A DNA stretch of 64,000 bases, from positions 29,822,001 to 29,886,000 of the forward strand of contig OX597838.1 in NCBI GenBank assembly GCA_951406725.2, read 5' to 3'. Both the position numbers and the translations under genes were made by a program. A model generated the notes under the pieces. It searched no databases. It was not told the origin of the DNA and saw only the letters and a program-made list of their open reading frames with translations. Position 1 is the first letter of the stretch. Every line of letters starts with the position of its first letter. Below are positions 4,486 to 64,000 of the stretch, in pieces. This stretch comes from Octopus vulgaris (taxonomy: Eukaryota).

Positions 4486-4705
4486 GATGATATATATATA
4501 TATATATATGTGTGTTGCCTAACACTCCATTATATAATGCCATATGAAACCGATTGGTAAGACCAGCCACGATGGGTAATTAATATTATAAAATTCAGAC
4601 AATATACCCACTCTACTGACAGTTATATGAATGCATCTTCTCCTTGATTTATGGTCTTTCTTAGATGACTCACGCACGTATATATAGGTGTGTGTGTGTG
4701 TGTGT

Positions 4706-18762: not shown

Positions 18763-18802
18763 CTGATGAAGGCTGGATGGTATATCAGCCGAAACGTTGT
18801 GT
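18763..18802 (+). ncRNA. Minimal hammerhead ribozyme motif (family P3), stem I 5' strand truncated
   Basis: CTGATGA-A-GGCTG...CAGCC-GAAAC-GTT-GTGT; element tail continues after a SINE at 19316-19351. Confidence 0.6.
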
Positions 18803-18850
18803 TAGCAACAAACAAGATGAGGACAAATATCCGTCGAATGTAAATAATGT

Positions 18851-22547: not shown

Positions 22548-25054
22548 TTGTATAAATCTGAAAGGGTTTACATTTTTTTTATGGCTACAAATTCTCTGGG
22601 GACCACCGGTGGGCCCTAGGGACCACGTTGGGAATCACTGAGTTACATCAATCCCAGTGCTCAACTGGTACTCTCTTTACTCTTTTACTTGTTTCAGTCA
22701 TTTGACTACAGCCATGCTGGAGCACCACCTTTAGTCAAGCAAATCGACCCCAGGACTTATTCTTTGTAAGCCTAGTACTTAGTCTCTTTTGCTGAACCAC
22801 TAAGTTACAGGGATGTAAACACACCAGCATCAGTTGTCAAACGATGTTGGGGTACAAACACAGACACACAAACATACATACATACATATCATCATCATCA
22901 TCATTTAACGTCCGCTTTCCATGCTAGCATGGGTTGGATGGTTTGACCGGGGTCTGGGAAGCCAGGAGGTTGCACCAGGCCCAGTCTGATCTGGCAGTGT
23001 TTCTACAGCTGGATGCCCTTCCTAACGCCAACCACTCCATGAGAGTAGTGGGTGCTTTTTACATGCCACCAGCACAGGTGCCAGGTGAGGCTGGCAACAG
23101 CCACGATCGGCTGGTGCTTTTTACATGCCACCAGCACAGAGGCCAGTCGGGGCAGAGCTGGTAACGGCCACGTTCAGATAGTTCTTTTACGTGCCACCAG
23201 TACTGGTATCACAACTACAATTTCCATTGATTTTTTAGCGATTTATACATTTATATATAAAGTTAATCCAAACAAGAAAGCACAAAAAACACAACAACGC
23301 GAGGATGTGGAACTAATATAGTATTATTAGCTCTTCGTCAGAAACATAGGAGAAGGAAAGATCCAGAGAAGGGAAGACAGAGGAAAAAAAATCGCCTACG
23401 GTACACACGAGGTCACATGTATAAATCGCTCAATGGGCTTCTTTCAGTTTCCGTCTACCAAATCCACTCACAAGGCTTTGGTCAGCCTGAGGCTATAGTA
23501 GAAGACACTTGCCCAAGGTACCACACAGTGGCACTGAACCCCGAACCATGTGGTTGCTAAGCAAGCTACTTACCACACAGCCACTCCTACTTATTTTGTT
23601 GATTCCGAAAGGTTGAATGGCAATGTCGATCTTGGCGACATTTGAGCTCAGAACGTAAAATCGGAAGAAATGCCGCTAAGCATTTTGTCCGGCAACGCTT
23701 CTGCCAACTTGCTGCCTTCATCCTACACATTATTGATGTCTGTTGATTGTCAATTATTAAGGAATGTCTATTCTTTACTTTCACTTTCACCAATTTCTTT
23801 CAATTTGTTGTTTGTCATTATATGTACATAAAACGAAAGAACACCTTCTTCTGTCGTTTCTTCCAGTTTTCTCGGTTTTTCTTTTCGTTTGAACCTTGGT
23901 TTCTTTTTTTTTCATTTTTTTTTTCCGCATCCTAAAATATATTTTACGCGATGCTCTGCCGAGTTTTATCGCAACGATATTGATTTTTTTCCTCTAAAAC
24001 ATAAGATCAATTATTGAACGAGATTATATAACGACAAGTATTTCGCAGGTACTAAATATCAACAATCACAGGTGAATTTGTGTTACGAAGTTTTCTTCCC
24101 AACCACACAGTTCCGGGTTCAGTCCCACTGCGTAGCCCCTCGGACAAGTGTCTTCTGCTTTAACCTAGAGCCGACCAAAGCCTTGTGAGTGGATTTGATG
24201 GACGGAAACTGAAAGAAGACCATTGTATATATAAATTAATAAATATATATGTGTGTGTGTCTGTAATTGTCCCCCCACAACCAGTGTTGGTGTGTTTACG
24301 TCACCGTAACTTAGCACTTCAAGAAAAGAGACCTATAGAAGAAGTACCAGATTTAAAAATAAATAGGTACCTAGGTCGCTTCGTTCGGCTAAAATTCCTC
24401 AAGGCGGTGCCTCAGCATGGCCGTATTCTAATGGTTGAAACGAATAAAAGATAAAGGTAAGAAAAAAATGGAACTGAAAAAAAAATTATAATCACAAGAC
24501 AAACTTTTAATAAAAGGACTGAAATATTTTTTTTGTTTTATTTAAGACACTGAATAAAACGTAAATTGTTTGTCACATATAAAAGTCATGACATAAACTC
24601 ATTAATTCACCCGCTAATTAGTATTAGCAGCTAATAATATACGGGTTGCGGCAGAAAAAGATCTTTCAGATTCTCATTCTTGATAAATGTTTTAAGGGAA
24701 AACAAATTATATATATATCACAGAAACGCATTTTCATCTATTAAAAATAAAATGGTAAACCATTAGCAACAAGAGAACGACATTATTACCTGCCTAACAC
24801 CTCTAATGTCAAAGCAATCGTCGTGCAAAATATGGGAGGTCTTTCTGCCTCGCTCCGTATTTGTTTTATTCGTGTAGCCATGATTTTGAATGTGAGTTTT
24901 TGGGGCACACACATACAATGTCATTATTGTATAAATTACGCACGAAAGTCTTAATTTGTTAGTTAATGAGCGACTTTGTTTAATTAACATAGCAACTATT
25001 TTTTTGTTTGTTTTTAATTAAATGTGTCATTTTGTTTGTTTGTTTGAAGTTATG

Positions 25055-27555: not shown

Positions 27556-27587
<32 letters not shown>

Positions 27588-27589
<2 letters not shown>

Positions 27590-27865
27590 TATCCGCAGTG
27601 TACAATATCATATATCGATCATGGCTGATCTTACCCATCGGTTTGCCGCTAGGGGTACAACGGAATGTTAGGTAACAATCCAAGTATATGACCCCCACGT
27701 TCATCAGAGGTAGCACTGACCACATTTCATTCTATGTCGGCTACCTCTGATGAGCGTAAGGTTATATAATCGGATTGTTACTTAACATTCTGTTGTACCC
27801 CTTGCGCGAAACCGATTCGTAAGGTCAGTTGTGATGGATACATAATACTATACACTTCGGATAAT
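27588..27865. repeat. ~280-bp imperfect palindrome (arms 27588-27714 and 27740-27865) containing hammerhead motifs on both strands
   Basis: Arms pair over ~125 bp at roughly 80% by hand alignment. Confidence 0.9.
27740..27829 (+). ncRNA. Type I hammerhead ribozyme, canonical core
   Basis: Stem I ACCT(27743-46)/AGGT(27822-25); CTGATGA 27747-53; stem II GCGTAAGG/CCTTGCGC; GAAA 27808-11; short stem III AC/GT; GTA triplet with predicted cut after 27821. Confidence 0.75.
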
Positions 27866-28099
27866 AAATACCCACTCTATTGACAGATATAAAAGTGCAT
27901 CTTTTTCCTGACTTATGGACTTTTAAACGACTTATGTATATCATCATCATCATCATCATCGTTTAACGTCTGTTTTCCATGCTAGCATGGGTTGGACGGG
28001 TTTTGACTGAGGGCTGGCAACCAGATGGCTGCACTAGGCTCCAGTCTTGATCTGGCAGAGTTTCTACAGCTGGATGCCCTTCCTAACGCCAACCACTCT

Positions 28100-28171
<72 letters not shown>

Positions 28172-28174
<3 letters not shown>

Positions 28175-28366
28175 GTTAATCCAAACAAGAAAACACAAAA
28201 AAACACAACAACGCGAGGACGTGGAACAAATATAGTATTATTGGACGCTCAGGAAAGAAGGAGGTTTTAACGGTTCGAGCGGAGCTCTTCGTCGGAAACA
28301 TAGGAGAAGGAAAGATCCAGAGAAGGGAAGACAGAGGGAAAAAATCGCCAACGGTACACACGCGGT
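28172..28366 (-). mobile_element. Penelope-type short repeat (family P1) with degenerate minimal HHR
   Basis: Reverse complement of 52229-52431; core reads CCGACGA...GAAC; abuts (TA)n. Deleted copy at 23255-23418. Confidence 0.65.
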
Positions 28367-28373
28367 CTCGATT

Positions 28374-29729
28374 TGTAGAACGACCGTATGAAAGGAGATG
28401 GTGACGAATGAATGTCTCCTTTTAAACACCGCATGGTCGCCTTACAATATGAGCCGAAATATATACGTGCCAAAAAGAATAAGGAAGGAGACGACACAAC
28501 CGATATGCTTAAGAGAAAGGTTTATTCAGTGTGTTGACATGTGGGTAGCAGAGTGTCTGTGTGCTTGTGTGCGTTATATGTACACACATAATAAAGAACA
28601 ATAAGAAGACAATAGACAGACCGTCATTCATACAATAATGTGTATGTACAACAACGGTGTATGCGTGTGAGATGTGGAGGCGCAATGGCCCAGTGGTTAG
28701 GGCAGCGGACTCGCGGTCATAGGATCGCGGTTTCGATTCCCAGACCGGGCGTTGTGAGTGTTTATTGAGCGAAAACACCTAAAAGCTCAACGAGGCTCCG
28801 ACAGGGGATGGTGGTGATCCCTGCTGTACTCTTTCACCACAACTTTCTCTCACTCTTACTTCCTTTTTCTGTTGTACCTGTATTTCAAAGGGCCAGCCTT
28901 GTCACTCTCTGTGTCACGCTGAATATCCCCGAGAACTACGTTAAGGGTACACGTGTCTGTGGAGTGCTCAGCTACTTACACGTTAATTTCACGAGCAGGC
29001 TGTTCCGTTGATTCGGATCAACCGGAACCCTCGTCGTCGTAACCGACGGAGTGCTTCCAATGCGTGTGAGATAAAATACAGAGCATAGAAATGAGTCTCT
29101 CGTGACGCTAGAAGTAGAACACACAAGATGTGGATAAATACTAGTTCGTAGTAAGAAACGCAATTGTAATGGTTCTGTAACAATGAGGTTGAGGCAAAAG
29201 TGGAGAGCCGGTTACTACGCATGTAGAGGTTGTGGCTACTATCCTGTGTCGGGTTACTTGGTACAGAAAGATCTCGCAGGTAGACTTGGCTGTTAACCTT
29301 GGTGAGTATTCACAAATAGCGTGAAGTTAAACCTATGCGAATTGCATGAAGGCGACGGCGGAGAAAGGTCCTGAAATGCTGCTGGTGGTGTTGGTGTCGC
29401 GGTCGCTGGAACTGGCTGAGTCGCTGGAACTGGCTGAGTCGCTGGAACATGGCTGAGTCGCTCTGTGGTCAGAGGTTAGTCCTAAGAAGGACTAGAACCA
29501 AAGACAAGTAATAGTTTGTTGTGATTAGCTTTTAAAGAGTTTAATGGGCTCCAGAAGAGAACCTAGAAGACTGTGTCACGGGACCTTATCAGAAGGTTGT
29601 GATTGGCTGGATTACACATTGGCGCGAAATAAAGCAAGAGTTGAAACTGCACCAAAACCAACCAATCAGAGCAGCGGACACAAGTGGGCCTAAGCAGCCG
29701 AAGGCCGGCTGTTATACGCCACGTCCGCA
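28374..29729 (-). mobile_element. Unclassified LTR-like interspersed element
   Basis: Non-coding and CpG-rich relative to flanks; minus-strand AATAAA (~28520); CCAAT boxes; internal 18-bp tandem repeat at 29402-29462. No clear TG...CA/TSD pair. Confidence 0.35.
28674..29059 (+). mobile_element. Young full-length tRNA-derived SINE with 13-bp TSD
   Basis: TSD ATGCGTGTGAGAT at 28661-28673 and 29060-29072; near-identical copy at 53337-53700. Confidence 0.9.
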
Positions 29730-30439: not shown

Positions 30440-30995
30440 AGGCTGTGTGGTAAGAAGTTTATTTCCCCACCGCATGGTTCCGGGTTCAATCCCACTGCGT
30501 GGCACCTTGGGCAAATGTCTTCTATTATAGCCTCAGGTTGACCAAAGGCTTGCGCAAGGATTTGGTAGACGGAAACTTAATGGCAGACCTTTGTACTGCA
30601 ATGCCAGGCCAACACGTGGCAAAGGCGGAGCAAGCCCCTAACTCTTCGCCTCGTTCTAAAAATCAATCTAACATAGATGATCCCTTAATAGGGACCGTAT
30701 CAGATATTAAGCTGATAAGAACAAATACTACACTTTGATCTTAGCCAGAAGTCCGAAAAAAAGTATGTATGCATGTGCGTGTGTGTGTGTGTGTTTGCCC
30801 CTCCTCCACCGACCACTTGACAGCCGGTGTTAGTTTGCTTACATCCCCGTAACTTAGCGGCTCTGCAAAAAAGAGACCGATAGAATATGTAACAGGTTTT
30901 TAAAAATATTGGGGTCAATTCATTCGACTAAACCCCTTCAAGTTGGTGCCCCAGCATGGCCGCAGTCCAGTGACTGAAAGCAGTGAAAGATAAAA
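30440..30995 (+). mobile_element. CORE-type SINE interrupted by a U2 copy
   Basis: Head and core up to GGAAACT (~30577); tail resumes at ~30767. Confidence 0.8.
30581..30766 (-). pseudogene. U2: U2 snRNA pseudogene (near full length)
   Basis: Minus strand CTTCTGGCTAAGATCAAAGTGTAGTATTTGTTCTTATCAGCTTAATATCTGATACG...GATTTTTAG (Sm-like)...GGGCTTGCTCC...CCTGGCATTGCAGTAC matches U2; degenerate 5' end; no snRNA gene context. Confidence 0.9.
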
Positions 30996-45902: not shown

Positions 45903-46017
45903 TATTTACATCTTGTTTGTTGTTTACACAACATTTCGGTTGATATACCCTCCAGCCTTCATCAGGTGTCTTGGGGAAATTTCGAACCTGGGTTCTCATT
46001 CCTAAGGTATTTTTCGA

Positions 46018-46052
<35 letters not shown>

Positions 46053-46298
46053 TCACTGCCTGGAATCGAACTTGGAATCTTGGGGTTTAGTAGCCTGTGC
46101 TCTTAACCACAATGCCATATGCCTGTGGGCAATTATGGAGTGAATTTTAGGGCTTATAAATCTAATATTTTCATATCTTGAATGCTGGAAGATATATCAG
46201 CCGAAATTTTGTGTTAACAACAAACAAGATGAAGACAAATATCTGTCTAATGTAAATAATGTATATAATTCCTCATCTTTCAAAATATAGAACTGTAT
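45903..46298 (-). mobile_element. tRNA-headed, hammerhead-containing retroelement (family P3) with 14-bp TSD
   Basis: TSD TATATTAAGATGGT at 45889-45902 and 46299-46312. Minus-strand A box TGGCATTGTGG (46107-46117), B box GTTCGATTCC (46062-46071), (AAT)n and HHR (45926-45969); inverted partial copy of the HHR tail at 46183-46295. Confidence 0.75.
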
Positions 46299-52187: not shown

Positions 52188-52225
<38 letters not shown>

Positions 52226-52228
52226 AAA

Positions 52229-52431
52229 ATGTGACCGCATGTGTACCGTTGGCGATGTTTTTCCCTCTGTCTTCCCTTCTCTGGATCTTTCCTATGTTTC
52301 TGATGAAGAGCTCCGCTCGAAACGTTAAACCCTCCTTCTTTCCTTCTTTCCTGAGCGTCCAATAATACTATATTTGTTCCACGTCCTCGCGTTGTTGTGT
52401 TTTTTTTGTGCTTTCTTGTTTGGATTAACTA
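52229..52431 (+). mobile_element. Penelope-type short repeat (family P1) with intact minimal HHR at 52296-52330
   Basis: GTTT-CTGATGA-A-GAGC-tcc-GCTC-GAAAC-GTT-AAAC; flanked by (TA)n. Confidence 0.7.
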
Positions 52432-52802
52432 TATATATATATGATATAATAATAATATTAGGGAGTATAACTCCAAACTTAAAGGGAAAAATTCAATTTA
52501 GTATTAAATCAAATTTCACAATATAAAATATAAATTAGAGATAAAACCACTATTATGCAACTCAAACAGTGACAGACGTAAACCAAAACATAAATAACAA
52601 AATAATATATATTTTTTTAAAACATAACTAGATCTCAAAAAGTATAAAAATGAATGATCAATATATAAGTAAAAAATCTACGTACATTTCATGGCTACAA
52701 TTAAATTCGAATTACAATTAAGTTTAAATTCAATTGAAATAAATTCGATTTAAAATTATAGTTAATCATCTCTAATTCATATTATATATATATATATATA
52801 TA

Positions 52803-52987
52803 TAGTTAATCCAAACAAGAAAACACAAAAAAAAACAACAACGCGAGGACGTGGAACAAATATAGTATTATTGGACGCTAAGGAAAGAAGGAGGGTTTAA
52901 CGTTTAGAGCGGAGCTCTTCGTCGGAAACGTAGTAGAAGGGAAGACAGAGGAAAAAAAAAATCGCCAACGGTACACACGAGGTCACA
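52803..52987 (-). mobile_element. Family P1 copy, inverted relative to 52229
   Basis: Reverse-complement match; core CCGACGA...TAAAC. Confidence 0.7.
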
Positions 52988-58551: not shown

Positions 58552-58582
<31 letters not shown>

Positions 58583-58583
<1 letters not shown>

Positions 58584-58807
58584 GACCGCGTGTGTACTGT
58601 TGGCGATTTTTTTTTTTTTTTTTTTTTTTTTTTTCCCTCTGTCTTCCCTTCTCTGGATCTTTCCTTTTCCTATGTTTCTGACAAAGAGCTCCGCTTGAAA
58701 CGTAAATCCCTCCTTCTTCCCTTCCTTCCTGAGTGTCCAATAATACTATATTTGTTCCACGTCCTCGTGTTGTTGTGTTTTCTCTTTGTGTTCTCATGTT
58801 TCGATTA

Positions 58808-58811
<4 letters not shown>
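58583..58811 (+). mobile_element. Family P1 copy with degenerate HHR core
   Basis: CTGACAAAGAGCTCCGCTTGAAACGTA; flanked by (TA)n. Confidence 0.7.
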
Positions 58812-58862
<51 letters not shown>

Positions 58863-63858: not shown

Positions 63859-63925
63859 GAATTCAAAATGAATAAATAAGTGCCTTATTTACATTTGAAG
63901 GATATTTGTCTTCATCTTGTTTGTT

Positions 63926-63971
63926 AACACAACGTTTCGGCTGATACACCTTCCAGCCTTCATCAGGTGTC
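63926..63971 (-). ncRNA. Intact minimal hammerhead ribozyme (family P3); element runs off the window end
   Basis: Minus strand GACAC-CTGATGA-A-GGCTG-gaaggtgtat-CAGCC-GAAAC-GTT-GTGTT. Confidence 0.7.
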
Positions 63972-64000
63972 TTGGAGAAATTTCGAACCTGGGTTCTCAT

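Follow-up and report, generated by a model that had tools for sequence, protein, structure and literature searches.

Hydra-1_Obim is a member of the Hydra clade, a group of Penelope-like elements (PLEs) with a C-terminal endonuclease (EN) (Craig et al. 2021, PMC8557442), and the clade is defined by the motifs RWK, DKT, CxCx5C, CxxC and CxH. According to the portions of that paper drawn upon here, the element shares with the octopus family described below an open reading frame (ORF) in which a reverse transcriptase (RT) is followed by a GIY-YIG EN and which carries these motifs, a length of about 3 kb, microsatellite targets, and a type I hammerhead ribozyme that lies close to the 3' end and whose stem III is palindromic. 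It differs from the octopus family in the EN linker and in the hammerhead, in which an 8-nt loop closes a stem II of 7 bp, whereas stem II of the octopus family is a hairpin of ~54 nt. Moreover, Hydra-1_Obim is listed there as having no pLTR, while in the octopus family the ORF is flanked by this repeat on either side.

Inverted pLTRs of EN+ PLEs are described in PMC8557442 and PMC3846280. As far as these partial sources go, the octopus copies have in common with them a head-to-head copy at the 5' end, a tail at one end only and heavy 5' truncation, although the tail is ~66 nt long in the octopus family and 30-40 in the published elements, and although the octopus stub is unlike the published cases in that its sense copy is also reduced to the terminal repeat, which yields a near-symmetric palindrome. 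Dual minimal hammerheads on opposite strands, 100-700 bp apart, have been ascribed to truncated PLEs (Cervera and de la Pena 2014, PMC4209133). Like the octopus pair, these are two type I motifs with a short palindromic helix III; in the excerpted text, however, they come from another animal group, and the octopus stem II is much longer. Going by these excerpts, such elements are already known to have head-to-head ends of which one bears a tail, as well as paired hammerheads on opposite strands, and the extras presented here (i.e., the ~66-nt tail and a symmetric pattern of one tailed and one tail-less arm) are modest.

For PAc (Poseidon of Anolis), cutting and extension of both DNA strands have been observed in vitro (Frangieh et al. 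2024, PMC11167929), and two start sites delimit the tail. Common to PAc and the octopus family are AT-rich targets and a pair of fixed 3' ends, both located downstream of the hammerhead and set apart by the tail. PAc belongs to another clade, however, and its start sites lie inside the ORF, whereas those of the octopus family lie upstream of the start codon. In the part of that paper drawn upon, the likeness covers two-site initiation and the cutting and extension of strands; the joining of cDNAs into a palindrome is a proposal made here.

Avsunviroidae and the CarSV retroviroid (PMC11722881, consulted in part) resemble the octopus palindrome in size, in the rod fold and in having hammerhead motifs on both strands. 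The octopus palindrome differs from them in that it has no fixed unit and no head-to-tail multimers, one of its cores is broken, and its arms are duplicates of a transposon end. Non-LTR retrozymes, in the portion of the preprint available, are tandem head-to-tail repeats with a type I hammerhead in each (bioRxiv 10.64898/2026.07.22.740005).

The window analysed here is a stretch of 64,000 nt of the Octopus vulgaris genome. The original prediction had described positions 27588-27865 as a rod-like palindrome with hammerheads in both polarities, being either an inverted Penelope or retrozyme end or a genomic copy of a viroid-like RNA. The palindrome is real but ordinary, a stub of a Hydra-clade family. 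We consider it very probable that 27588-27934 is a short Hydra-clade PLE insertion, composed of two 5'-truncated hammerhead pLTR copies placed head to head in a microsatellite, likely in a single integration event, and now decaying without function.

Layout of the locus

Folding gives a single rod for 27588-27865 (-161.3 kcal/mol, z = -18.4, with 0 of 200 shuffles equally good), in agreement with the ~280-nt palindrome originally described, and the opposite strand is also rod-shaped (-158.7 kcal/mol, z about -18). The two arms are identical at 106 of 140 aligned columns. The earlier count of about eight G-U pairs holds, yet a G-U bias does not: given that 8 G-U mismatches stand beside 9 A-C mismatches, the G-U pairs of the window copy reflect no bias. 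The earlier right boundary at 27865 has to be moved, for the sense arm extends past it as the family tail and reaches 27934, i.e., 69 bases further. Hence, the insertion is 27588-27934 and asymmetric (Table 1). This copy has no ORF, and no target-site duplication is readable at 27588-27934 within the microsatellite.

The centre junction is spanned by contigs of public runs from two studies, namely X1 record 3, which shows 0 differences and is possibly from the source sample, and X3 record 20, which shows 2 differences. Given that two runs from two studies bridge the junction, an assembly artefact is ruled out. No RNA run is among the public sequencing runs listed as containing this stretch.

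Table 1. Positions in the window of the parts of the insertion and of its target flanks.
Feature	Position	Strand	Basis
Left target flank, (CA)n microsatellite	27558..27588	.	sequence
Inverted arm without tail; pLTR copy truncated at the 5' side and terminating at the short 3' end of the family	27588..27714	-	
Hammerhead homologue in inverted arm, C for G12 at 27645, predicted inactive		-	
Arm-arm junction, 3-nt microhomology common to both arms	27712..27714	.	bridged by contigs
Sense arm, 5'-truncated pLTR copy, starting ~35 nt upstream of core	27712..27865	+	
Type I hammerhead, predicted cut after A27821	27743..27825	+	
One-sided tail, ~66 nt in family, leading into the 5' UTR where a copy is full-length	27866..27934	+	
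Right target flank, TA/(ATC)n simple repeat	27935..27960	.	

Hammerhead motifs of the two arms

The type I hammerhead predicted on the + strand was recovered in full, with a 4-bp stem I (27743-27746/27822-27825), CUGAUGA at 27747-27753, an 8-bp stem II (27754-27761/27800-27807) prolonged by a long hairpin extension, GAAA at 27808-27811 and GUA with H17 = A27821. Stem III is short and near-palindromic, and a G>C change at 27818 makes it weaker in this arm. The 4-bp stem I claimed for the window copy is present there, yet its perfect state is a minority one in the family, the pair being unpaired in 50 of 55 aligned arms. The whole core is kept in 52 of 87 family arms.

G12 of the hammerhead is the residue that serves as general base. 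On the - strand, the homologous motif of the original prediction exists, with CUGAUGA from 27707 and H17 at 27632, but its core is broken by a C in place of G12 at 27645, so this second hammerhead is predicted to be dead. The conserved core with three stems that characterizes a type I hammerhead is therefore found in the + arm only.

Folding puts the energy penalty of forming the hammerhead at ~83 kcal/mol within the full rod and at 2.8-5.0 kcal/mol within an isolated arm, and the long hairpin of a read-through transcript is predicted to block the ribozyme. The hammerhead is the element's ordinary pLTR ribozyme, predicted to act as a dimer in tandem transcripts. If the stubs are transcribed within genes, they are predicted to give long double-stranded RNA.

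The Rfam search that had been suggested as a check returned no hammerhead family at E<=10 in 27560-27900 (4 matches, none of them a hammerhead), nor any hammerhead among the best 150 of 297 matches in the whole window, likely because of the long stem II. Covariation in the stems, another suggested check, appears across copies as a weak signal, with a score of 0.218 against 0.199 when shuffled, and this signal is partly CpG-driven. Arms beginning at the predicted cut site were considered as a possible trace of cleavage in vivo. Among 20 loci containing the ORF start, three arms (L113, L115 and L123) start at most 2 nt from this site. In a sample chosen irrespective of the 5' end, an arm starts at the cut site in 1 of 30 loci, and that one is apparently split by an insertion.

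Further hammerheads occur elsewhere in the window. An unrelated second repeat family is present at 52225-52448 (+), 52723-52987 (-), 58556-58827 (+), 28157-28375 (-) and 23243-23418 (-); it has an intact minimal core at 52300, and the copies at 52225 and 52723 lie tail to tail. A third family, with a minimal hammerhead, is found at 63913-64000 (-), 45909-45999, 46179-46259 and 18763-18847, with a core at 63966 on the - strand and with its two copies near 46 kb oppositely oriented.

Family copies and their link to a Hydra-clade ORF

The host genome is 2.8 Gb in size and microsatellite-rich. A DNA search of it yielded 81 matches in the best 40 of 1509 first-look candidates; this search favours whole palindromes and junctions like the window's, and single arms are also among the matches. 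All locus samples are subsets of the best BLAST hits, with the best 40 scored per search. The family is dispersed and decayed, its arms averaging 86% identity to the majority, with symmetric CpG decay. The 3' ends of 147 arms are bimodal: 71 lie near the short end, and 59 lie at or beyond the tail end ~66 nt further (the reference ends there, and longer arms are counted with this class). Arm ends adjoin TA or CA repeats in most of the loci viewed, by informal tally, which is the (TA)n insertion expected of the Hydra clade. Insertion debris of this kind is already known, and here it is very common. A fragment of the family at ~4513-4680 (+) of the window carries the 3' half of the hammerhead and the tail, without the CUGAUGA half, between TA/GT repeats. 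Three palindromes (L079, L086 and L098) have one arm mostly gone and the tail kept, as if by hairpin-driven deletion.

Upstream of single arms, the order is RT, GIY-YIG EN, 3' UTR and then the arm. In a selected set of long loci, the arm follows the EN region in 13 of 15 (the 3' side is seen in, e.g., L062-L076); given that the query contained both the EN region and the arm, this number expresses linkage, not frequency. At the other end of the element, L108, L110 and L111 show the arm and its tail leading into the 5' UTR and the beginning of the ORF, which identifies the arm as a true pLTR. L111 additionally has an inverted arm in front, and L070, which is near full length, has an inverted arm ahead of it. 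The same arm is found at both ends of the RT + GIY-YIG ORF. Hence, the features expected of an EN+ PLE were found, namely an RT + GIY-YIG ORF linked to a terminal repeat (by motifs in decayed readings), a hammerhead pLTR at both ORF ends with an inverted 5'-truncated copy, and the optional tail at one end, here longer than published.

Both RWK and DKT, which belong to the N-terminal part, are present in several of the 20 ORF-start loci, the RWK position being mutated in L070. The CxCx5C linker, as well as CxxC and CxH, which flank the conserved E and N, are present in L062, L064, L071-L074 and others, and the EN core is without cysteines/CCHH. By hand count, the RT core of L070 is identical to that of Hydra-1_Obim at 51 of 68 residues. 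Pfam gave no RT or GIY-YIG match on 7 decayed ORF pieces, so the clade call is based on motifs and by-eye comparison, not on a tree. Judged from its sequence, the ORF belongs to the Hydra clade as a sister family of Hydra-1_Obim, and not as the same family, because its EN linker and hammerhead are different. The family is probably unnamed. The comparison drew on part of the supplement of PMC8557442, and the rest of that supplement or Repbase/Dfam may contain a closer relative. When longer proteins were searched, one of 553 candidates matched: a UniRef entry from Octopus bimaculoides, labelled as a PH-domain protein, with 59% identity over 92% of the RT piece, which is probably a gene model containing an element fragment. 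The EN ORF of another Hydra-like family was also observed at L062:1776-2363 (-), 2 kb from the studied element.

The original prediction had stated that its viroid-like reading would fall if single arms attached to Penelope ORFs were found. They are found, so that reading falls, and the alternative of an inverted Penelope end was the right one. We give hardly any credence to the reading that the locus was copied into the genome from a viroid-like circular RNA of the Avsunviroidae or CarSV type, bearing a hammerhead in each polarity. Such an origin would account for a rod of about 280 nt and for hammerhead motifs on both strands, but the arms are duplicates of one ORF-linked transposon end, the - core is broken in the window copy, and in folding the rod, being favoured by 83 kcal/mol, blocks the ribozyme. 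Both arms span the whole core in only 33 of 60 head-to-head rows, and, in a junction-blind search, in 4 of 13 close pairs, with a fifth borderline; in many pairs, truncation of one arm falls within the ribozyme. Head-to-tail multimers of the unit are absent at the locus and among 151 arm-bearing loci, where same-strand neighbours account for 7 rows, all of two copies. Avsunviroidae and retroviroids are characterized by a fixed unit whose hammerheads are intact in either polarity and by a DNA form, where there is one, of head-to-tail multimers; neither was found, there being no unit array. The retrozyme-like reading was also dropped, since the locus has no tandem head-to-tail array of hammerhead units. 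Searches of animal data for ambisense viroid-like RNAs could be contaminated by these stubs, which look like such RNAs.

The G-U bias expected of a rod-shaped RNA is absent from the family as well: there are 160 G-U and 150 A-C mismatches (p = 0.61), and selection for an RNA rod was rejected on this balance. Marks of A-to-I editing were likewise rejected; the T>C excess (167, compared with 97 A>G) sits in subfamily columns.

The comparison of copies also bears on whether the palindrome is a repeating unit, as the original prediction allowed; it is not a fixed one, given that junctions and lengths vary between copies. Neighbouring arms lie head to head in 60 rows (two of which duplicate a locus) and tail to tail in 1. 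Junctions use 29 different position pairs in 34 rows (two of these, L022 and L055, mapped badly) and often lie on microhomologies; several have untemplated inserts instead of overlaps, and they are concentrated in a naturally occurring inverted repeat located ~-31 to -6 relative to the core. Considering the 27 pairs in which both cores are spanned, the arm distance is 0.130 within copies and 0.176 between copies (permutation p = 2e-4), a likeness that gene conversion after insertion could also give. The family has three subfamilies, and both arms are of the same one in 23 of 23 callable pairs (4 of the 27 being uncallable), where 35% would be expected; palindromes with arms of differing subfamilies were looked for in these pairs and none was found. 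Among 111 columns, none separates left from right or tailed from tail-less arms.

A non-autonomous palindromic element (MITE-like or retrozyme-like) that arose from a Penelope end and spreads as a whole unit would explain why many copies are of similar size and why a handful of junction positions are each encountered twice or three times. It is nevertheless very unlikely: the number of distinct junctions is high, the recurring ones lie on microhomologies, palindromes occur in all three subfamilies, and between-copy distances are equal for tailed-tailed (0.174), short-short (0.177) and mixed (0.176) comparisons.

Formation of the head-to-head stubs

One tailed and one tail-less arm are combined in 46 of the 60 head-to-head rows, or 46 of the 49 with both ends scorable. 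The remaining rows comprise 1 two-tailed pair, 2 scored as tail-less on both arms (one has a tail with an internal deletion and the other is cut by the locus edge) and 11 with an arm cut short. The sole palindrome seen with tails on both arms is L144:1498-1923. In 24 of the 46 mixed pairs, the arm that extends further upstream is the tailed one, and in the other 22 it is the tail-less one. This pattern, in which either arm may be the longer, argues against a simple fold-back of the cDNA.

We lean slightly towards a mechanism in which the element's protein would nick both strands of a TA or CA repeat, two cDNAs would be primed on the element's RNA, one per start site, both would stop just upstream of the ribozyme, and their 3' ends would be joined via microhomology.

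Self-priming, in which the nascent strand folds on the short inverted repeat upstream of the ribozyme and copies itself, and a later staggered endonuclease cut leaves the tail on either arm, is a tenable alternative within the Penelope reading, although we hold it to be less than an even chance. In the parts of the sources drawn upon, self-priming has been proposed for PLEs (PMC3846280), as has a tail formed through endonuclease resolution (PMC8557442). The clustering of junctions on the natural inverted repeat and the agreement of subfamily between arms are both in line with it. A simple fold-back from the tail end, however, predicts that the tailed arm is always longer upstream, which is the case in about half of the mixed pairs, and the untemplated inserts also speak against it; the version with the later staggered cut is the only one that survives. 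Weighing the two schemes, we find two cDNAs somewhat more plausible than a fold-back with a staggered cut.

Under the two-cDNA mechanism, the stubs might be the genomic record of twin priming, in which cDNAs that start at the initiation sites on either side of the tail, primed on opposite target strands, are joined; they would then be in vivo evidence for a two-site, two-strand reaction of the PAc type, a proposition we place a little short of even. If it is true, the rule of one tailed and one tail-less arm, with either of them the longer, would be the in vivo counterpart of the PAc reaction in vitro, in a Hydra family with a doubled tail length. Junction and end statistics provide a cheap test bed for how PLEs form inverted ends.

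Apart from hammerhead repeats, the window contains a tandem array at 781-1928 with a period of ~35 nt, and a full-length match to U2 snRNA at 30573-30764 (-), with 119.7 bits, which abuts a SINE-like repeat and is either a gene or a retrocopy.
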